From positions 214,480 through 278,479 of the forward strand of contig JAUVXJ010000001.1 in NCBI GenBank assembly GCA_030603665.1: DNA of 64,000 bases. The letters are read 5' to 3'. Position 1 is the first letter of the stretch; each line of letters starts with the position of its first letter. Positions 724-52,615 of the stretch are shown here, piece by piece. The DNA comes from Chloroflexota bacterium (lineage in GTDB: Bacteria; Chloroflexota; Anaerolineae; UBA7937; B3-Chlor). The position numbers and the translations under genes were made by a program. The notes under the pieces were generated by a model. The model was given only the letters and a program-made list of their open reading frames with translations, had not been told where the DNA came from and ran no database searches.

Positions 724-783
724 AAACAGAAGGGCCGCCCCGCAAGGGGACGGCCCCAGAATACCTGGGCTCCGAAGAGTGAC

Positions 784-3126
784 CTACTCCCTCGTCCTCC
801 AACGAAGGGTGGCGTACCCTGCTAATCCAGCAAGGCCGCTGCCCAGAAGCAGAATGGTGCCGGGCTCGGGGACCAACTCCTCCGGTGCGACGGGCTCCTC
901 CGGTGCGACGGGCTTCTCCGAGGACTGGCAGATCTCGGCCTCCCCGTCATCGACGCAGACTTGGATATTGTAGATGCGATTGTCACCGTAGGTGTAAGGG
1001 ATTGTCACGCCGCCACACCAGGGGTCGCAGTCGCCCTGCCTTTCACTTCGCGTCTGATATTGCTCTGTGCCGTCGCCCCAGTCGACGCTCACGGTAACAC
1101 TTTCGGCGGCAGGGTCGCTCCATTGGACGAGCAGTTGGCCCCTCTGCCCTGCACGTCCCGAGTGCTGCCAATCCCAACCGATCGTGGGCTGGACGTTCAT
1201 CTGCTGGATCGTCGTGGTCACAGTCTGCGAGTAGCCCCAGTATTCCAGAGTCACTTCGCAACTGCAGCTCCCCGGAGGACCAGTGAACACGGCTCGACTA
1301 TCATCGTCCGTTGGCGTCAAGGAGCCCTCGCACTCGCTGCAGTCTAGGCTCCACCAATATGGTTCAGCAGGAGGCAAGATCGAATAGATGATCTGCGCCG
1401 AGGTGGCCCAGTTGTCATGAGCCCCCTCGGGGTAGTATTGGCATCCACCTAGACTATCATTGGCGCCCACCCAGCGCGCCTCGATGACGTTGCCAGTCCC
1501 ATCGCACTGGATATAGTAGCCTCCGTATCTCCAGTTCTGGTAGATTCTGAGTGTCGAAGTCTGGGGCCCGCAGAAAGTGAACGACGACATCTCATTATCG
1601 AAGAAGTCAAGACCGTTGGGGCCTCCCGTGAAGTCGTCGAATTCATCCGTGTATTGGTCCTCCCAGTCCATCATCAGAGCGCTACCCTCGGGGAGCACCT
1701 TGTTCATATTGGCGTTGTCGAACATATGCACCCACGGGTCGATCACGTAGACCTCGCCGTTCAGCTCCAGGCTGGATCCTTCGTCGATGCTGTAGGGCCC
1801 ACCGAGGTGGTCCTCTCGCCACTGCGGCCCGCATGTCTTGGTGTGGGAGACATAGATACTTCTGTATTCGCCCATCTCGATGACCGGGACCTCTTCTCTC
1901 GTAAACGCCTGGTGATCCGCAGTGTAAAGGATGAGCTGTCCCGTAGGGCTCACATAGATGCCGGAGGCGGCGTCCAGATCACCAAAATTTCCACCTGGAA
2001 TGCTGCTCAGATCAAGAGGACCCTCAAGCCTAAGGTCGCTCACCTGGATATGCCTGAGCAGCTCGAACGTGACGGCATCTGCAGACGGGCTTGGCAGGAG
2101 TTTGCTTTCATCGACACTGTACAAAGCTATCCAGTCGTGGCCAACATCTAGCAAATCTGTACTGTTGTCCCCAGCGATGAGATACAGCGCGCCGGAGGTG
2201 TCACGGACAAAATTAAGCGTCTGCCATTTAAGGTCATCGGGCATGAACGGCTGAGTGTAACCAATTATGTCAATATCGAAGTCACCATGGCCCAGGGGGT
2301 AGCCGTTCGAATAGGCGAAGGCCCATACACTGGAGTCGCCCCAAGTGAAGACGAACAGGTATTTATCCTCGTCAATGTTACTCCTGGTGACGCCAACGAC
2401 GCCGAGCCCGTCAAGCATCAGCGACCGATGATACTTGGGCACTGGGTTCATAGGATCCCCGACGTCAATCAGGGCTAATCCGGCTCTACCGTCGCATTGT
2501 GTACGGTCGCATCCCCAACCTCCAGTGGTACACTCCAAAGGCACCGCCAAGAAGTCGTCGATAAGCTGCACGCCGCCGGCGTGCCAATACTTCGGCCAGC
2601 CGCCTGTTCCGTCAAACAACCTGGTGGACTTGACCCCCCTGTCGTCCGAAGGTGGGGCCGTATCCGCGAAATCTTTGTCCGGCTTCAGGCGGTTGGAGCG
2701 GAGCCGCTCGCCGAACGTATCCCTAGATCCCATTCTCACGATCAGTAATTCACCGGGCTGACAGTCCCAACCAAGGCACGAACCTGTCCTGTTCCTGTTC
2801 CTTGTCAGGAACAAGTAAGGCGTGCCGTCGGGGCCTGCACCTCGCGCCATGCCCTGGTAGTGCCTACATGGGATCAAGCCATAGTCGGTCTTACCCACAC
2901 CCACCCGGGCGCCCAGTGGATCGCCGAAGTTCTGAAGATCCTCAAACTGCTTGTATACGTTGGGCGCTTCTCTATAGGGGGTGTTGTAGTTTTGGACGTC
3001 ATCATCCAACGTGGACAGCGGCGCCGTATCGCTCAGCGGCTTGGAAGCCCCCGTTGCGCCGACGAGCGCCAGCAGCAGCCCAACCACAACTATCCCATTC
3101 AACCACACTCTGCGCTTCATTCTCAA
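784..3126 (-). CDS. secreted protein with C-terminal PEP-CTERM sorting signal (exosortase substrate), function unknown
   Basis: 780 aa. The N-terminus is a signal peptide (MRMKRRVWLNGIVVVGLLLALVGATGA). The C-terminus is (PVAPEE)x3 - VPEPGTILLLGSGLAGLAGYATL - RWRTRE, i.e. a PEP motif, then a TM helix, then an Arg-rich tail, which matches PEP-CTERM. Confidence 0.75.
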   Translation of the reverse strand: MRMKRRVWLNGIVVVGLLLALVGATGASKPLSDTAPLSTLDDDVQNYNTPYREAPNVYKQFEDLQNFGDPLGARVGVGKTDYGLIPCRHYQGMARGAGPDGTPYLFLTRNRNRTGSCLGWDCQPGELLIVRMGSRDTFGERLRSNRLKPDKDFADTAPPSDDRGVKSTRLFDGTGGWPKYWHAGGVQLIDDFLAVPLECTTGGWGCDRTQCDGRAGLALIDVGDPMNPVPKYHRSLMLDGLGVVGVTRSNIDEDKYLFVFTWGDSSVWAFAYSNGYPLGHGDFDIDIIGYTQPFMPDDLKWQTLNFVRDTSGALYLIAGDNSTDLLDVGHDWIALYSVDESKLLPSPSADAVTFELLRHIQVSDLRLEGPLDLSSIPGGNFGDLDAASGIYVSPTGQLILYTADHQAFTREEVPVIEMGEYRSIYVSHTKTCGPQWREDHLGGPYSIDEGSSLELNGEVYVIDPWVHMFDNANMNKVLPEGSALMMDWEDQYTDEFDDFTGGPNGLDFFDNEMSSFTFCGPQTSTLRIYQNWRYGGYYIQCDGTGNVIEARWVGANDSLGGCQYYPEGAHDNWATSAQIIYSILPPAEPYWWSLDCSECEGSLTPTDDDSRAVFTGPPGSCSCEVTLEYWGYSQTVTTTIQQMNVQPTIGWDWQHSGRAGQRGQLLVQWSDPAAESVTVSVDWGDGTEQYQTRSERQGDCDPWCGGVTIPYTYGDNRIYNIQVCVDDGEAEICQSSEKPVAPEEPVAPEELVPEPGTILLLGSGLAGLAGYATLRWRTRE
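877..928. repeat. tandem 18-nt repeat (about 2.8 copies of ctcctccggtgcgacggg) encoding the PVAPEE linker repeats of the PEP-CTERM protein
   Basis: Direct inspection shows units at 877-894 and 895-912, with a degenerate third copy. Confidence 0.6.
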
Positions 3127-3804
3127 ATCTCCTTTCTTTCTCCAAGCTTACACCAACGTTGCCAGTTGTATCCGCCTCATTCCCCCATCTCCCTTCCGTC
3201 GCTAACCTCAGATCGACTTTCCCGATACCTGTTCATCCGTGCTGCTCATCACCTTCCGCCCCAAAAAGTGGGGGCTCGCCGGGTTGCGCCCAGCGAGCCC
3301 CTGTGCTAGAATAAGGGTGCACAAAGGGTGCCGAGAGCGCCTTGAGTGCATGGTCTTGGCCGGCCTTAACCCGGCCGAGACCACTTTCTATCTGTACCAC
3401 ACGAAGAAACCGGCCATACCTCCGGCCGGTTTCACTATTGGCTTACTGAGGGCCAAGTGACCACCTTGCGGCCCTCAGATCATCGCCTCCGGGATGTCAC
3501 ACTCGTCTTGGGATCAAAAAAGCGCCAACCGTCCGCTGCTTTAGCGAGAACGATCGGCGCTCCATATATTCCTCCTTCTTGCGGTTCAATTCGGGCGGTT
3601 GAAACGACAACTGTTCGATATAGATGTTAACTATACCGCTATCGGAGAGTCCGTCTTCTGCGCATAATGCCCTTCCTGTCCATTATATACCAAAATTGAA
3701 GACTTGTCAAGTTGGCAACGGCTATTTAGCTCTCACCTGTCCCCCGGGGGTGAGGAGAGGGCCAGCACTCCCATCAGCTTCACATTTCGACTTATGGGTA
3801 ACGC

Positions 3805-46875: not shown

Positions 46876-46946
46876 GGCGTGACCACGATTGGCAATTATA
46901 GTCCACCCAGGCTCCAAGTTCCAGGCAAACGACGAGAGGCGGTCGC

Positions 46947-47255
46947 TTGCTCTTCGAGGCGCGACGCATGCTGGAGGCGTGTCGCAACATCATGCTCCAG
47001 ACATCAGGCCCGTACCGAGAGGATTTCCTGGAGGAGATAGCGACCGAAGTCGGCGAGGAGCGAGTGCTCTTCGCCAGCAGGAGTCCCGTCTACGATGAGG
47101 AGTTCGAGATGGCCCGCGTGCCGTTCGCCCACCTCAGCGACTCAGAGAAGGAGAAGCTGTGGGGTTCCAACGAGCTTGCCACCTTCGCCTTCGCGGGCGG
47201 GTACGGCCAGGACTCATTGCCGTGTACCTCTGGTCACAACAGACTAGGCATGTAG
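46947..47255 (+). pseudogene. amidohydrolase-2 family C-terminal fragment (gene remnant) or small orphan ORF
   Basis: ERVLFASRSPVYDEEFEMARVPFAHLSDSEKEKLWGSNELATFAF matches the C-terminal strand-helix of PF04909 TIM-barrel amidohydrolases. No upstream remainder exists, because tgt occupies that space. Confidence 0.35.
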
Positions 47256-48067: not shown

Positions 48068-48405
48068 GGTCACAGGCGATCTGGTGAGCCCGGTTTGTCT
48101 TCGGAACTCCTCCAACGCTGGCCCGTCCAGGAAATCCGTCACATCAAAATCGAGGAGGGTCCGGCTTCCCTCGACTCTCCTCGATCTCGAGAACTCTGCT
48201 AGTGAATTGATTTGTAGCTCGTTGTTCAAATGCCTATCAGGCACCTCCCTTTGATGTCCGATACACCGCGAGGCCAACGGATGTGTCGGCGAGACAACAA
48301 AACGCGAAGACCTGACCCGGTCCTCGCGTCGGTCATGACACCGTATGAGCCACCAGCCACATCAACCCATGACGTGACAAAGGTCGCTGTGAGGCCTGCT
48401 ATGTC

Positions 48406-48645
48406 CTACGTATTACAGGTGGCGCAACTGGTCGCGGCGCAGCTGGCACAGCCACTGCCGCCCAAAGATCGGCTACTCTCGCCACCGTTCCCGCCCCTGC
48501 TCACGGCAGAGAAGAGGGAGATGGCTCGACTAGTGTGAGATCCACTGCACTCAGTGCACGAGACAGCCTCGTCGGCCTGGCTGAAACTCCGCAGAACCTC
48601 AAACTTGCACTGGCAATCGTCACAATGGTATTCGTACAGCGGCAT
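48406..48645 (-). CDS. FmdB-family zinc-ribbon protein
   Basis: MPLYEYHCDDCQCKFEVLRSFSQADEAVSCTECSGSHTSRAISLF is the canonical FmdB motif, followed by a Gly/Cys-rich tail. Confidence 0.6.
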   Translation of the reverse strand: MPLYEYHCDDCQCKFEVLRSFSQADEAVSCTECSGSHTSRAISLFSAVSRGGNGGESSRSLGGSGCASCAATSCATCNT

Positions 48646-48685
48646 CACATTCTCCCGTCGCAACGCAACCAACGGCTACCGCTAA

Positions 48686-48934
48686 GTGTACCATACGATC
48701 ACCCTCTGGTCAAATGCTCGCTTCAGGCACCGGGGAAAGGAGAATACCTTGGATGAGCTAGCCAATCGCGCCTTGAATCTCGCACAGACGAAAGGCGCCA
48801 GGTACGCCGATATTCGCCTCGTTCTCTTGGAGGCGAAAAGCCTGACGGCCAAGAACGGGATCGTGGAGGCCGTCTCTCTGGACGTGAGCCAGGGCTGGGC
48901 TCAGGCTCAGCCCCGCACTCCTATTATCTCATGA
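48686..48934 (+). pseudogene. TldD/PmbA N-terminal fragment
   Basis: ELANRALNLAQTKGARYADIRLVLLEAKSLTAKNGIVEAVSLDVSQG resembles the PmbA/TldD N-domain. The ORF stops after 82 codons. Confidence 0.4.
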
Positions 48935-48961
48935 AAGAACGGCCCACTCAAGGCCGTTCTT
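48935..48961. terminator. perfect 10-bp-stem hairpin (aagaacggcc-cactcaa-ggccgttctt) between convergent genes
   Basis: It starts immediately after the TGA at 48932-48934 and lies 54 nt from the end of the minus-strand lipoprotein gene. There is no clean U-tract on either strand. Confidence 0.45.
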
Positions 48962-49014
48962 GGTCCATTATTGGTGCCCCCAGGGGCGGGTTTGCCGTAC
49001 GCCGGATATGGGGG

Positions 49015-50619
49015 CTAATCTAGAGGGTTCGAAGGCTCCTCGGATACTGTAATCGACTGAAACGGCATCACTCCGTCCGGGAGGACGAGCTCGCCTTCGA
49101 ATACACCGGTAGTCAAATCGTACGTCGCCGACCACCGAGAGGTCGGAGGATAAGCCTCGACTTCCATTGTTTCGCACCCTTCAAGCTTCTCGTAGGTGAC
49201 AGCGAAGTCGTGCACAGGCCCTTCTAACTTAGCACTGTCTGGATAGAAATGGCCTGACAGCGTACCGACAAAGCCGATACGCGCCCTACAAAACCAGTCG
49301 TCAGTCTGGCCTACATAGATGTAAGAGAAGTGGAAGTTTCCTGAAACGGGTCCCCCATCCACGGGGAAAGCGATGTTGACCTCGTCTGAATCCACCGTGT
49401 ACGAACCTACATTATCAGTGCCAAACTCGCCTTCGACGACGCACCAGGCTCCGGGCGTACTACACACCCCGCTTGAGATAGGCTCCGGCGCTTCTCTTGT
49501 TGCCGGGGCCAGGCATCGCCCCTCTTCGCAACTGTGCGAGCAGGTTTCCACCACCTCGCAGTCAGGGGCCAACAGGGTCAGCGTGGCCTCGTTTCCGCCA
49601 CAGTCTCTGACCTCGACATCCTCCGAGGAGTCGCAAAGCACAGTAGCCGGGTCTGGATCGGGCGGCGGCTTTATCCGATCATCCTCGACCTTCACCCCAC
49701 ATTGCCAGGCCTGGTGCAAGACGACCACGTTTCTACCAGCACGAAACCCACAGCCCAGCGTCCGCGGGGTCTCGGCCTTCTTGCACATTGTGGGTGTGAG
49801 GGTTGGCGGGTCGTCACCCGAAAAGAAAACACAACCGGCACCAAAGACGCAACTGCCGGTCGCTGCTAGCAGAAGAAGTGCACAGCTGGGAGCCGCCCAT
49901 AATGCCGCCGGCGTGAGCGTGAATGGGCAGGCCTTCGTGGCCGCCCCTACGCTGCCCACGCAGGCAGCGCCAGTCCCCCCCGTTCCAATCCAGCCCCCCA
50001 AGCAGGTCTTGATCTCGTGCCATGGGCCAGTGCTGCATGGCTCTTGTTCAGTCTGGAGAGCGCTCGCAAGGGCCGGCGGGCGCCAGCTTTCTGGGGACTC
50101 CGTCTCTCCGATCGGGTCGCCAGCGGCATCGAAGACGGCCACGCCCTGCTCGGTTAGCTCCAGGCGTCCCTGCCGCTCGTAGAGCACCAGCGTCTCGTTC
50201 TCGTACCTCAATAGCAGGGAACTGTTGCGCTCGCCGCTTGCGGCCTGGATAGCGATTATGGCCTCATCCTGAGGCGAACCGAGGGCCAGACCTGACAGTA
50301 CTGTGGCATTGCTGAGTATCACCTCGGCTGCCCCCCCCTGCTCGGTGTATCCCTGCTCCGCGGCCAGAGCGTAGGCATCAGCGAAGCTTTCGTCGCCCTC
50401 TACGGCCTGGAAGAACTCCTCCGTGGTGAGTTCCCTTTCGGATACGACCTCCACGGGTGCCGATGCAACCCCCGTTGGGACCGGGTAGGCCTCAACCGTG
50501 GTGGTGGGCTGCTGCCCACCATCCTCCTCACGAGCGGGCAGGCCGCAACAGGCGGTGATCAGCGACGCTATGGTCACGATGGAGACGACATTCAGCACCA
50601 GCGTCTTGGTCAGGTTCAC
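49015..50619 (-). CDS. Cys-rich secreted lipoprotein of unknown function (534 aa)
   Basis: It has a lipoprotein-type signal (LNVVSIVTIASLITAC) and 30 or more Cys residues in recurring short spacings. I recognise no family. Confidence 0.6.
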   Translation of the reverse strand: MNLTKTLVLNVVSIVTIASLITACCGLPAREEDGGQQPTTTVEAYPVPTGVASAPVEVVSERELTTEEFFQAVEGDESFADAYALAAEQGYTEQGGAAEVILSNATVLSGLALGSPQDEAIIAIQAASGERNSSLLLRYENETLVLYERQGRLELTEQGVAVFDAAGDPIGETESPESWRPPALASALQTEQEPCSTGPWHEIKTCLGGWIGTGGTGAACVGSVGAATKACPFTLTPAALWAAPSCALLLLAATGSCVFGAGCVFFSGDDPPTLTPTMCKKAETPRTLGCGFRAGRNVVVLHQAWQCGVKVEDDRIKPPPDPDPATVLCDSSEDVEVRDCGGNEATLTLLAPDCEVVETCSHSCEEGRCLAPATREAPEPISSGVCSTPGAWCVVEGEFGTDNVGSYTVDSDEVNIAFPVDGGPVSGNFHFSYIYVGQTDDWFCRARIGFVGTLSGHFYPDSAKLEGPVHDFAVTYEKLEGCETMEVEAYPPTSRWSATYDLTTGVFEGELVLPDGVMPFQSITVSEEPSNPLD

Positions 50620-51072
50620 GATATTCCTCCTTTCAATCAGTGCTCAACAACGCCCTTGGGCGGCGCTGTCCTCGTCTTCAGCGGACGGCACACAAGACGA
50701 GGGCGGGCGCGCCGTATTCCCCGCAGGACCTGGCCCTGGACGACAAACAGGCGATCTGGATTTGCCTCATCATGGTACAAGCGAAAGCGTTGTCAGCCCA
50801 GCGTCTACCCCACCGTGCATCCCAAGGTAGCCAGGTCACGAGTCTCGCCGGCATGGCTGGCAGATTCTGTAGCTCTACTGTAGCGCCTCTTCGCCTGGCT
50901 GTCAAGACCGGTGCTCCCTTTTTGGAGATCCAGGGAGCTATTCTCGTGTAGTTCTGATGGTCCAGCCTGACTTTCAGCACCGGATAAGTCCAGAAAGAAA
51001 AGCTCGCTGTGTGTAGCTAGCCGGGCTTGTCGAGGAAGGGATGGTGACGACAGCGGCCCCTTTCCGTGGAAT

Positions 51073-51420
51073 GTGGCCATGGCCGGAGGGCAAGCGACGA
51101 AGCAGGAGATGCTGGCTTCGACAAGCAGGGGGCTATGGGTGACCAGAGTCCACTACGTCAGGCCGGCGCACCCCCTCCGGACCATCGTGACGGGGATGAC
51201 CCGCGACAGGACGTTCCTCATCGAGAATGGAGAGATAGAAGGCCCGGTGAAGAACCTGCGCTTCACACAGAGCATTCTGGAGGCTCTAAGCGGGGTGGAA
51301 ATGATGTGCCGGGACACGAAGCTGACCCGCGGGGCCTTCATGGAGAAACTTCATATGAAGCATGAGGGTTCCGGCGCTGAAGATCGGGAGGTTCGCCTTC
51401 ACCAGCGCCACCGAGTTCTA
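51073..51420 (+). pseudogene. TldD/PmbA C-terminal fragment
   Basis: GLWVTRVHYVRPAHPLRTIVTGMTRDRTFLIENGEIEGPVKNLRFTQSILEALSGVEMMCRD matches the PmbA/TldD C-terminal domain well. The remainder of the called ORF (to 51564) is antisense to the zincin gene and has no homology. Confidence 0.5.
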
Positions 51421-51421
51421 G

Positions 51422-51790
51422 TCAGTATGCCCCCAGGTCCCGCAAGCGCTCGTCGGAAATGCCGAAATGATGGCCCAGTTCGTGCATCACGACCTGCCGC
51501 ACCTTGCTACGAATCTCCTCCGAGCTGCGACAGCAAGCCTCGACAGGTCCTTGATAGATCGTGATTCTGTCTGGCAGCACCATACCGTACCGAGACGTGC
51601 GCTCAGTGAGAGGCACGCCCTCATACAGGCCGAGAAGGGTCTCGCCAGGAGGGAGGCCCATCCTCCTGACCTGCTCACGACTGGGCCAGGCCTCAATGAC
51701 CACGTCTACGTTTTCCATCTGCTCCTGGAATTCGTGGGGCAGACTATCTAGAGCCTCAGCGACCAACCTCTCAAACCGTGACTTGTTCAC
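51422..51790 (-). CDS. zincin-like metallopeptidase (DUF1025/Zincin_1, HExxH)
   Basis: It reads VVMHELGHHFGISDERL. Confidence 0.7.
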   Translation of the reverse strand: MNKSRFERLVAEALDSLPHEFQEQMENVDVVIEAWPSREQVRRMGLPPGETLLGLYEGVPLTERTSRYGMVLPDRITIYQGPVEACCRSSEEIRSKVRQVVMHELGHHFGISDERLRDLGAY

Positions 51791-51793
51791 GCC

Positions 51794-52615
51794 TCACCCC
51801 TCGATCATCTTGCCCGGCTGGCACGCTCGGCAGAAATTGGACAGCCTGTTCCTTGCCCGTATCTCGGAGATCGGCGTTCCACACCGGGGGCATGGGGAGC
51901 CACCGTGCCCGTGCACCTGGAGAAAGTCCCTGATCTTGACATCTATGTCGTCGCCCATGCGCTCCCTCAACACAACGATGGCCTGGGATAGCACCGATCG
52001 TATGCATCGATGCAGCCTCTCGACCTCGTCAGGGGACAGGCTGGGGCGCTTCCGAAAGGGGTACAGTCGCGCCTCAAACAGGATCTCATCGGCATAGGCG
52101 TTGCCTATCCCTGCCAGGACAGCTTGATTGATGAGGAGACCCTTGATCTCGCCGCGCCTCGTGCGCAGCCTCTCTCGAAAGACCTCCAACGTGAATCCGG
52201 GATCCAGTGCGTCAGGTCCCTGCCCGCCGAAGCGGGGCACCAGATTCTCATCTGGGGTCAGATACACCTTCCCCATGGACTTCGGGTCCACATACCGCAG
52301 GTCCATCCCGCCAGACAGCCGCAAGATTAGAATCGTCCTGGCCAGGCGACGTGTGTCGGGAGAGCAATACTGCAGCCGACCTGCCAGCATGGGGTTGATG
52401 ACGATGGTTCGGCCGCTCTCCAGGCCTAGCAGCAGGAACTTGCCCCGCCTCCCCACCTCAGAGAGCGTGTCGCCCTCGAGGGTGGAAACGGTGTATTCCG
52501 GCAAAAGGCTGCGCACCACTAGAGGGCGAAGCACCTCTGACGCCTCGATCACCTGCCCTGGCAGCACGCGCTCCAAGTACTCCTTGATCACCTCCAGATC
52601 AGGCGATTCCGGCAT
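51794..52615 (-). CDS. mutM: formamidopyrimidine-DNA glycosylase (Fpg/Nei family)
   Basis: The N-terminus is MPESPDLEV (Pro2 and Glu3 are catalytic). The C-terminal zinc finger is CPRCGTPI...CRACQ. The start is at ATG 52615. Confidence 0.8.
   Translation of the reverse strand: MPESPDLEVIKEYLERVLPGQVIEASEVLRPLVVRSLLPEYTVSTLEGDTLSEVGRRGKFLLLGLESGRTIVINPMLAGRLQYCSPDTRRLARTILILRLSGGMDLRYVDPKSMGKVYLTPDENLVPRFGGQGPDALDPGFTLEVFRERLRTRRGEIKGLLINQAVLAGIGNAYADEILFEARLYPFRKRPSLSPDEVERLHRCIRSVLSQAIVVLRERMGDDIDVKIRDFLQVHGHGGSPCPRCGTPISEIRARNRLSNFCRACQPGKMIEG

Follow-up and report, generated by a model that had tools for sequence, protein, structure and literature searches.

In E. coli, TldD and TldE (PmbA) form a heterodimeric metalloprotease (PDB 5NJ5; Ghilarov et al. 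2017, PMC5810440). In the related contigs compared here, the intact pair likewise consists of a gene with the HExxxH motif followed by a gene without it, whereas the locus described in this report lacks the metal-binding motif and both central domains. Homology-facilitated illegitimate recombination has been described for naturally transformable bacteria. In E. coli, e14 and phage 21 leave a remnant of icd, in the form of a duplicated 3' end.

Intact copies of the locus are present in L087, L003 and L004 (L numbers label the related contigs used for synteny comparison), where tldD (480 aa) is directly followed by pmbA/tldE (451-458 aa), both full-length and in the same neighbourhood. The pair is preceded by genes for an α/β-hydrolase and a Zn-ribbon protein, and followed by zincin, fpg, thioesterase and miaA genes, with the zincin gene missing from L004 and the right side of L003, a short contig, showing zincin and fpg only. 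The pmbA and zincin genes are convergent, with 0-1 nt between their stop codons. Each L087 gene contains all three PmbA_TldD Pfam domains (PF01523, PF19290 and PF19289), and the HExxxH motif (HESCGH, aa 250-255) is confined to the first gene of the intact pairs. L087 TldD matches E. coli TldD (5nj5_A) at 2e-30, and the PmbA partner is a chain of the same PDB entry. Synteny establishes this as the ancestral arrangement, an operon-like pair in which tldD encodes the catalytic subunit and pmbA/tldE its non-catalytic partner.

The window (the whole stretch of Chloroflexota DNA that was analysed, 64 kb) contains the following features at the corresponding position.

48406..48672, minus strand: intact Zn_ribbon_8 gene (Pfam PF09723, 4e-13)
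48686..48934, plus strand: N-terminal ORF of the original prediction, 82 aa, made up of an upstream extension, the tldD stub and imported codons
48749..48896, plus strand: tldD 5' remnant, codons 1-49 (48749-48895), with a TTG start and an AAGGAG Shine-Dalgarno sequence just upstream
48892..48896, no strand: left joint, a 5-nt microhomology (GGGCT) found in L087 tldD and in the L002 segment copy
48897..51054, no strand: putative imported segment, 2,158 bp, absent from L087 and present in L002
48935..48961, minus strand: terminator-like hairpin with a perfect 10-bp stem and a 7-nt loop, 54 nt past the lipoprotein stop codon
49015..50619, minus strand: Cys-rich lipoprotein gene, 534 aa, with a GTG start, signal peptide, lipobox and real homologues
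50626..50631, minus strand: Shine-Dalgarno sequence AGGAGG, 6 nt upstream of the lipoprotein GTG start
50877..50905, minus strand: promoter-like site TTGACA-17-TACAGT, a consensus match only (10/12)
51055..51059, no strand: right joint, a 5-nt microhomology (GGCCC) found in L087 pmbA and in the L002 segment copy
51055..51420, plus strand: pmbA/tldE 3' remnant, codons 331-451, frameshifted, with the native TAG stop at 51418-51420
51346..51348, plus strand: +1 frameshift in an A-run (GAGAAAC; GAG-AAC in all relatives)
51422..51790, minus strand: intact Zincin_1 gene (Pfam PF06262, 3e-34)

The Zn_ribbon_8 gene is the divergent neighbour of tldD and serves as the left synteny anchor, its position being kept in L087 and L086. 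On the right the anchor is the Zincin_1 gene, which converges on pmbA and keeps its position in L003 and L087.

We consider it probable (roughly 0.8) that the stretch from tldD codon 50 to pmbA codon 330 was swapped for 2,158 bp carrying the lipoprotein gene, by illegitimate recombination. The original prediction had described a TldD/PmbA-family locus destroyed by an insertion or replacement, with a novel Cys-rich lipoprotein gene in place and dead-looking remnants on either side. This picture holds, as do its placements of the ORFs at 48686-48934 and 49015-50619 and of the one starting at 51073, and the event is better described as a replacement than as a pure insertion.

The left remnant was assigned to tldD by several comparisons. 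TldD aa 1-49 of L004 align with window positions 48749-48895 at 67% identity (tblastn, E 8e-16), and the window is 90% identical to L087 at the DNA level over the stub, the match stopping exactly at 48896. The stub scored E 1.9e-11 with a TldD-type HMM (profile positions 2-49) but only E 34 with a PmbA-type HMM, and a profile of 56 more distant TldD orthologues picked it as the sole significant match among 945 window ORFs (E 3e-11). Its orthology is also indicated by position, with the α/β-hydrolase and Zn-ribbon genes to its left as in L087 and L004. The ORF at 48686-48934 gave no Pfam match at E ≤ 1 and no PDB sequence match; Pfam is blind to the stub because domain 1 is reduced to 29 of its 65 residues. 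The earlier call of a TldD N-terminus thus found no backing in Pfam or PDB, and was borne out by tblastn and the family-specific profile.

This ORF is chimeric, its last 13 codons being read from imported DNA (…SQG followed by WAQAQPRTPIIS and a stop codon). It could still yield a short chimeric peptide, the stub having kept its start codon, its Shine-Dalgarno sequence and 61 codons of open frame. Only 49 of the 480 TldD residues are left, and the HExxxH motif and the three-domain architecture are gone.

The right remnant belongs to pmbA/tldE. In tblastn, PmbA aa 331-429 matched at 75% identity, and aa 427-451 at 76% in another frame. The plus-strand ORF at 51073-51564 matched Pfam PF19289 (PmbA_TldD_3rd, 6e-13) over part of the profile (positions 123-205 of 220), which agrees with its earlier description as a PmbA_TldD C-terminus. 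The stub scored E 3.6e-54 with the PmbA-type HMM (positions 330-445 of 445) versus E 11 with the TldD-type HMM. HMM searches, which had been proposed as a check on both fragments, therefore recognised the C-terminal one through Pfam and the N-terminal one through the family-specific profile but not through Pfam. The small proteins (98-212 aa) that alone were returned by a word-indexed search with the C-terminal fragment were considered as a stand-alone mini-protein family and rejected; they are truncated gene calls on short contigs, and the alignment extends upstream into normal PmbA.

These assignments bear on the proposal that a 2.1-kb insertion split one tldD/pmbA gene, which would now lack some 270 residues of its middle. 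Both stubs do belong to the PmbA_TldD superfamily and lie on the same strand in the right order. However, two genes occupy this position in the intact relatives, the HMMs assign the two stubs to different paralogues, and the stretch lost comprises 431 tldD codons, the intergenic spacer and 330 pmbA codons (761 codons, ~2.3 kb), corresponding to 2,300 bp in L087 in place of the 2,158-bp window segment. The single-gene model is almost certainly wrong, and the remnants are the 5' end of tldD and the 3' end of the adjacent paralogue.

The pmbA stub lacks a start codon and ribosome-binding site of its own, and an R stands in place of the invariant G of TGMTRDGT. The frameshift in the A-run, identified by alignment with L087, both copies in L001, L003 and L004, might be a homopolymer sequencing error. 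The same frameshift makes the ORF run on into the zincin gene. This overlap had been taken as a sign that the fragment is dead, but pmbA already abuts the zincin gene in intact relatives. Over 84 codons (~12 non-synonymous and ~14 synonymous differences), the stub had a dN/dS of 0.235 against L087, whereas the matching stretch gave 0.04-0.07 among intact genes; this shows relaxed constraint on the stub sequence. Of PmbA, 121 of 451 residues are left, domains 1 and 2 are gone, and no complete ~450-aa ORF is present.

Neither stub is likely to make a functional protein, because the metal-binding motif has been lost along with nearly the whole of both proteins; the pmbA stub in particular appears dead, given its missing start and ribosome-binding site, the frameshift, the G-to-R change and the relaxed constraint. 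No further TldD/PmbA match was found anywhere within the 64-kb window by tblastn or family HMMs. The window locus encodes no TldD/PmbA protease.

The break points could be placed at the nucleotide level. Homology between the window and L087 (90-91.5%) breaks off at 48896 and returns at 51048, and a three-way alignment of the window, L087 and L002 revealed the 5-nt microhomology at each joint. Illegitimate recombination is inferred because each joint sits on such a microhomology. Microhomologies of 5 nt are short, and a chance origin is possible at either joint.

A copy of the segment is present in L002, a 3.2-kb metagenome contig, in flanks unrelated to those of the window. The overall identity is 87%, with 97-100% at 50088-51059, 94% at 48888-48987 and 64-88% between. 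In composition, GC3 and tetranucleotide usage the segment is indistinguishable from the host, so that the contrast with the flanks for which a check had been suggested is not there; this is no evidence against import, as the donor would be a close relative. A repeat search over 48300-51900 yielded only chance-level short pairs, with no terminal inverted repeats, target duplication or direct repeats at the segment ends, where direct repeats had been suggested. No transposase or integrase was found in 48897-51054, nor any Pfam-recognisable gene besides the lipoprotein ORF, which itself has no Pfam family. Rfam gave no family near threshold over 48300-51900, and no tRNA gene was found anywhere in the 64-kb window. 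By these features the segment is not a classical mobile element.

The segment does look like a self-contained expression unit, with a promoter-like site ~260 nt upstream of the lipoprotein start, a strong Shine-Dalgarno sequence, the lipoprotein gene and a terminator-like hairpin. The hairpin at 48935-48961, whose perfect 10-bp stem had been correctly described, folded in context with a dG of -19.7 kcal/mol (z -4.5). Its stem is unchanged in L002, where the sole difference lies in the loop, and its U-tract is weak (UUUCAUG). It had been taken as the left boundary of the gene, and it does mark the 3' end of the lipoprotein gene, but it lies inside the segment, 39 nt from the left joint.

We propose that the ancestor carried tldD and pmbA/tldE between the divergent Zn-ribbon gene and the convergent zincin gene, and that ~2.3 kb was removed and 2,158 bp joined in. 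The donor DNA would have derived from a different locus, either in the same genome or in that of a close relative. The most likely route would be microhomology-mediated illegitimate recombination, most simply by a double crossover with a linear fragment, and the replacement would probably have been a single event. A single-step replacement is indistinguishable from an insertion followed by flanking deletions.

At least four further independent deletions or replacements at the tldD-pmbA locus are apparent from sequence comparison in relatives (L001, L086, L084 and L088/L090-L093). Within one clade, some lineages have kept the pair whole, while others have lost it by at least five different structural routes. 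A comparison with related genomes had been suggested as a way to tell recent insertion from ancient loss; intact copies and independent losses were both found, so that the loss did not happen just once in the distant past, nor is it confined to the window. That related lineages deleted or replaced the tldD-pmbA pair independently, several times over, makes it evident that the pair is dispensable here.

The independent assemblies of these relatives, with similar stubs and other cargo, also argue against an assembly artefact, in which two loci were chimerically joined. The source is probably a metagenome-assembled genome, and the frameshift lies in a homopolymer. However, an artefact needs two chimeric joins on 5 nt each, far below assembler k-mer lengths, and composition and flanking gene order are continuous. 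We regard this explanation as highly improbable.

Retention of one or both stubs for a function, as a small pmbA protein or as terminator or promoter context for the zincin and Zn-ribbon genes, was also considered. No deletion allele has less than ~128 nt of tldD or less than 24-70 nt of pmbA, minimum lengths that would fit a role in cis, the L001 pmbA stub is an uninterrupted ORF to the native stop, and the dN/dS of the window stub is well below 1. However, a low dN/dS is expected if the divergence mostly predates the loss, the window pmbA stub has the defects listed above, the L001 tldD stub contains an in-frame TAG, and stub lengths differ between lineages. A retained function is very unlikely.

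The cargo alleles in this interval comprise a surface lipoprotein, an unknown gene pair, a membrane protein with a methyltransferase, and a membrane protein; those of L001, L086 and L084 differ and are mutually unrelated. Pfam and PADLOC searches of the L001, L084 and L086 cargo matched only the L086 SAM methyltransferase (PADLOC mad2, 1.8e-16). Neither search confirmed a HEPN-like identity for the 449-aa cargo protein of L001.

Such variable cargo at one place is what a mobile or integrative element, or its relic, placed at a targeted locus by site-specific recombination might leave. Consistent with this, diverged direct repeats surround the inserts at three loci (112 bp, 92% identical, in L001; 193 bp, 76%, in L084; 102 bp, 90%, in L002), no more than ~2 nt separates the left joint of the window from that of L086, and breakpoints are concentrated in the first 230 nt of tldD and the final 370 nt of pmbA. 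In L001 and L084, a further copy of the pmbA 3' end lies displaced beside the insert. Against it, no integrase, transposase or recombinase was found in the window segment or in any insert (Pfam, PADLOC), the window segment has none of the end repeats or target duplication sought above, the joints vary by locus with unrelated cargoes, the composition is host-like, and the window yielded no tRNA gene. We consider a mobile element improbable. Also improbable is the idea that the interval between the Zn-ribbon and zincin genes is a preferred exchange site, at which a site-preferring process swaps cargo alleles between diverged Anaerolineae; if this were true, the module-shuffled lipoprotein family would be a cell-surface variation system.

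The lipoprotein brought in by the proposed replacement starts with MNLTKTLVLNVVSIVTIASLITAC24, as read from the translation, with K5, a hydrophobic stretch at 7-21 and a lipobox (I-T-A-C, with C24) that conforms to the motif [LVI][ASTVI][GAS]C and is also conserved in P0122 and P0130. Its predicted location is the outer face of the cytoplasmic membrane, where a lipid anchor would hold it. Its layout comprises three predicted folded domains and a hydrophobic Cys/Gly-rich linker. A medium-confidence structure model (mean pLDDT 64.5, 75-85 within the barrel) predicts disulfide-rich β domains and a C-terminal 8-stranded β-barrel, possibly comparable to the ligand-binding barrels of other surface lipoproteins; any function is a prediction from this model and a generic fold match. 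A Foldseek search of the model against PDB returned nothing at E ≤ 1e-3, and PADLOC gave no match for the window lipoprotein. The gene is a mosaic, with modules in common with ~700-aa Zn-ribbon/PF06439 paralogues, and the contexts of the paralogues P0124 and P0130 have no tldD/pmbA link and no flanks in common with L002. With just 32 clusters among 1.84 billion representatives, the family appears to be tiny, unannotated, mosaic and lineage-specific.

For annotation, the two ORFs should be treated as pseudogene stubs of different genes, rather than as a split gene or partial TldD/PmbA proteins, and the 534-aa ORF as what looks like a real, expressed lipoprotein gene. The lineages with intact and lost pairs offer a natural experiment on a tldD-pmbA copy that appears dispensable in these Anaerolineae. 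The locus also provides a nucleotide-resolved gene replacement without mobile-element machinery in an uncultured phylum, and brings to light a mosaic family of Cys-rich surface proteins that is small and unannotated. As a form of gene loss the case is commonplace, though documented unusually well, and nothing in it overturns current understanding.

Compared with known systems, the lipoprotein resembles NHBA, HpuA, TbpB/LbpB and fHbp of Neisseria, and hemophilin, in being a modular, variable extracytoplasmic protein with an N-terminal lipobox, but it has no sequence similarity to these barrel surface lipoproteins (3-13% identity), and its host belongs to the Chloroflexota rather than the Proteobacteria. 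As at integration hot spots and genomic islets, one interval between conserved genes holds different cargo in each relative, and the displaced pmbA 3' end beside the insert in L001 and L084 recalls the icd remnant of e14 and phage 21. Unlike that case, integrase and phage genes are absent and the window has no duplicated gene end; att cores are near-identical, whereas the repeats in the relatives are 76-92% identical. These diverged repeats would fit one homologous and one illegitimate crossover. In the window, both joints appear illegitimate with no homologous anchor visible, which differs from homology-facilitated illegitimate recombination. With its 5-nt joints, donor DNA of the same composition, and no recombinase or terminal repeats, the window locus resembles microhomology-mediated pseudogene formation.

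The feature under study is a pair of pseudogene stubs left by a replaced tldD-pmbA operon, together with an imported lipoprotein gene. Its parts in the window are as follows.

48749-48896, plus strand: 5′ remnant of tldD (tldD stub)
48897-51054: imported segment
48935-48961: hairpin within the segment
49015-50619, minus strand: Cys-rich lipoprotein gene
51055-51420, plus strand: 3′ remnant of pmbA/tldE (pmbA stub)

The three ORFs of the original prediction are present where it placed them. The observation was real, although partly mis-described, and its interpretation was right only in part: where it had a single tldD/pmbA gene split in two, intact relatives and family profiles show two genes.

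Syntenic loci were recovered by scanning genomes with the C-terminal fragment as seed, and metagenomes with the neighbouring zincin. In the closest relative, L087 (neighbouring proteins 86-94% identical), and in L003 and L004, two Anaerolineae/Chloroflexota MAGs, the interval from the Zn-ribbon gene to the zincin gene contains two full-length genes: the first encodes a TldD of 480 aa, the second a PmbA/TldE of 451-458 aa. In L004, which has no zincin gene, the pair ends at fpg. The outer neighbours are those of the window, with an α/β-hydrolase on one side, and fpg, a thioesterase and miaA on the other. Both L087 products contain all three PmbA_TldD Pfam domains, and the HExxxH motif is confined to the first gene of the pair (HESCGH, aa 250). 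The product of this first gene matches E. coli TldD (5nj5_A, 2e-30), with the PmbA partner in the same PDB entry, in line with the heterodimer described previously (PMC5810440).

A tblastn search aligned TldD aa 1-49 with 48749-48895 (67% identity, E 8e-16), PmbA aa 331-429 with 51055-51351, and PmbA aa 427-451 with 51344-51418 in a different frame. Profiles were then built from 56 TldD-type and 63 PmbA-type orthologues, excluding the three nearest relatives. With the TldD profile, the tldD stub gave E 1.9e-11 and the pmbA stub E 11; with the PmbA profile, they gave E 34 and E 3.6e-54, respectively. In both cases, the stub of the same type was the sole significant match among the 945 stop-to-stop ORFs of the window. 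The C-terminal ORF also had a match in Pfam (PmbA_TldD_3rd, 6e-13, profile positions 123-205 of 220). The N-terminal ORF had no match in Pfam or the PDB sequence set, and was recognized with the TldD-type profile; Pfam misses it because domain 1 has kept only 29 of its 65 residues. The missing part is not a middle of about 270 residues, as first estimated, but 431 tldD codons, the spacer and 330 pmbA codons. These amount to 2,300 bp in L087, and the window has about 2,150 bp instead.

Homology between the window and L087 (90-91.5%) stops at 48896 and restarts at 51048. The segment (window 48888-51059) is also carried, with 87% identity overall, by L002, a 3.2-kb metagenome contig whose flanks (L002:1-358 and 2538-3193) match neither the window nor any of the loci retrieved. 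Three-way alignment showed a short shared sequence at each joint: GGGCT (48892-48896), shared by tldD and the L002 copy, at the left joint (…GTGAGCCAGGGCT/GGGCTCAGG…), and GGCCC (51055-51059), shared by pmbA and the L002 copy, at the right joint (…GACAGCGGCCC/CTTTCCGTGG…). Direct repeats were sought at the segment ends, and neither terminal direct nor terminal inverted repeats were present. The segment contains no Rfam family and no Pfam-recognisable ORF besides the lipoprotein gene, and a search of the whole window for tRNA genes gave none. The composition of the segment, which the original prediction proposed to compare with the flanks, is the same as that of the host in GC3 (0.686) and tetranucleotide usage, with 27% of equal-sized window segments deviating at least as much. 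From the microhomology at the joints, the absence of these repeats, families, tRNA genes and other ORFs, and the host-like composition, we infer a replacement by illegitimate, microhomology-mediated recombination, which would have occurred in a single step, the incoming DNA being from elsewhere in this genome or from a close relative.

The hairpin at 48935-48961 (perfect 10-bp stem, 7-nt loop, dG -19.7 kcal/mol, z -4.5) had been noted as bounding the lipoprotein gene on the left. It is the 3′ element of the segment rather than the boundary of the event, and its stem is kept in L002, with the sole change in the loop. The segment appears to be a self-contained expression unit, because it carries a promoter-like site (50905-50877, 10 of 12 matches), a Shine-Dalgarno sequence, the lipoprotein gene and the hairpin. 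The lipoprotein start is preceded by 435 bp (50620-51054) that are 97-100% identical to L002, an uncommon length for a leader or promoter; they contain no Pfam-recognisable ORF and no Rfam match.

Comparison of synteny showed the pair to be kept in L087, L003 and L004. Counting the window, its loss took at least five structurally distinct forms, and several related lineages deleted or replaced it independently.

Fate of the tldD-pmbA pair (break points in intact L087 coordinates; L087 tldD is 1,443 nt)
Window: tldD broken at nt 148; pmbA resumes at codon 328-331; lipoprotein segment between
L086: tldD broken at about nt 146; pmbA from codon 408; 179-aa membrane protein and SAM methyltransferase between
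L001: tldD broken at nt 230, with an in-frame TAG, and joined, out of frame, to 112 bp of pmbA tail; then a 2.56-kb insert with two genes without match, and a second, longer pmbA stub; tails 92% identical
L084: contig ends within pmbA, so that the tldD break is out of view; pmbA present from codon 279 through its native stop; 1.24-kb insert and a displaced copy of the tail (76% identity, in-frame gap of 18 nt)
L091-L093 and L088: tldD broken at about nt 128; last 70 nt or less of pmbA; plain deletion
L090: tldD not detectable; pmbA reduced to its last ~12 nt; plain deletion, junction not placed

The break points in L086, L001, L084, L088 and L090-L093 cluster near the outer ends of the pair, within 230 nt of the tldD start and 370 nt of the pmbA end. 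The window and L086 have left joints no more than about 2 nt apart, and the adjoining DNA is unrelated. Diverged direct repeats flank the inserts of L001 (550-661 and 3445-3556, 92%), L084 (the two pmbA tails, 76%) and L002 (228-329 and 3092-3193, 90%), the last consisting of 102 bp from an unrelated gene's 5′ end. These repeats are too different to be fresh target duplications, and suggest either old events or the import of alleles from diverged relatives. Such import, by one homologous and one illegitimate crossover, would fit both the crowded break points and the diverged repeats; a site preference of some kind might also account for them. The L001 insert (779-3037) contains two minus-strand genes, encoding 282 and 449 aa, without a Pfam or PADLOC match. 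The RNSIVH (R-x4-H) motif of the 449-aa protein recalls HEPN domains, a resemblance for which Pfam and PADLOC gave no support.

The lipoprotein gene has a GTG start preceded, at 6 nt, by an AGGAGG Shine-Dalgarno sequence, and its signal peptide ends in I-T-A-C24. A word-indexed search found 14 relatives, and an exhaustive HMMER pass found only 32 clusters in 1.84 billion representatives. The window protein has no Pfam match. Ten relatives scanned have no Pfam domain at the curated cut-off, the closest being a sub-threshold PF06439 in longer paralogues. The gene is a mosaic. Its DNA is 97-100% identical to L002 over 50088-51059, 94% at the 3′ end and 64-88% between, and residues 301-360 are 93-97% identical to P0123 versus about 60% to the L002 orthologue. 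The 700-aa paralogue P0123 carries a Zn-ribbon at its N-terminus, along with a membrane span and a PF06439 module.

Across the family (49015-50619, P0122-P0134), N-terminal anchors are exchanged (lipobox, or Zn-ribbon, membrane span and PF06439 module), and so are C-terminal modules (predicted 160-aa barrel or ~90-aa Ig-like domain), on either side of a Cys-rich core that is conserved. Some ~250-aa proteins (P0139, P0150, P0151) have the barrel by itself. The AlphaFold model (mean pLDDT 64.5) contains three folded regions (~aa 60-175, 270-372 and 390-534, pLDDT 70-90) and a low-confidence, hydrophobic Cys/Gly-rich linker, and had no significant Foldseek match in the PDB. Our best guess is that the product is a lipid-anchored, disulfide-rich, modular extracytoplasmic protein, whose predicted C-terminal barrel may bind a ligand.

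The pmbA stub has neither a start codon nor a ribosome-binding site, and R replaces the invariant G of TGMTRDGT. It changes frame at an A-run (51346-51348) with one extra A (GAGAAAC versus GAG-AAC in five relatives), which may be a homopolymer error. The family-typical tail VPALKIGRFAFTSATEF lies in another frame, and its stop (51418-51420) is 1 nt away from that of the convergent Zincin_1 gene. The dN/dS of the stub versus L087 is 0.235 (84 codons), compared with 0.04-0.07 for the same region among intact genes and 0.18-0.25 for neighbouring genes. In this small sample, the state of the stub fits a constraint that was relaxed during a minor share of the time since divergence. The tldD stub retains a TTG start, a Shine-Dalgarno sequence and an open frame that continues through 13 codons of imported DNA. 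A chimeric peptide of 61 aa, with no recognisable domain, could conceivably be made from it.

A second deletion, at 46942-47255, lies about 1.6 kb left of the tldD locus. The plus-strand ORF at 46947-47255 encodes no more than the C-terminal portion of an Amidohydro_2 protein (positions 194-282 of the 289 in the Pfam profile). About 1.5 kb of L087 (9192-10695), with the rest of this gene and a second amidohydrolase-like gene, is missing from the window, and tgt now adjoins the stub. The strongest tetranucleotide deviation in the window is in segments starting at 59.5-61.8 kb and in the first ~3.7 kb, and GC peaks at 0.66-0.675 at 54.8-55.4 kb.

The locus is of modest interest for specialists in genome evolution, and its small, unannotated protein family is a lead to follow. 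Events of this kind are already known, and the replacement of tldD-pmbA is a further instance.
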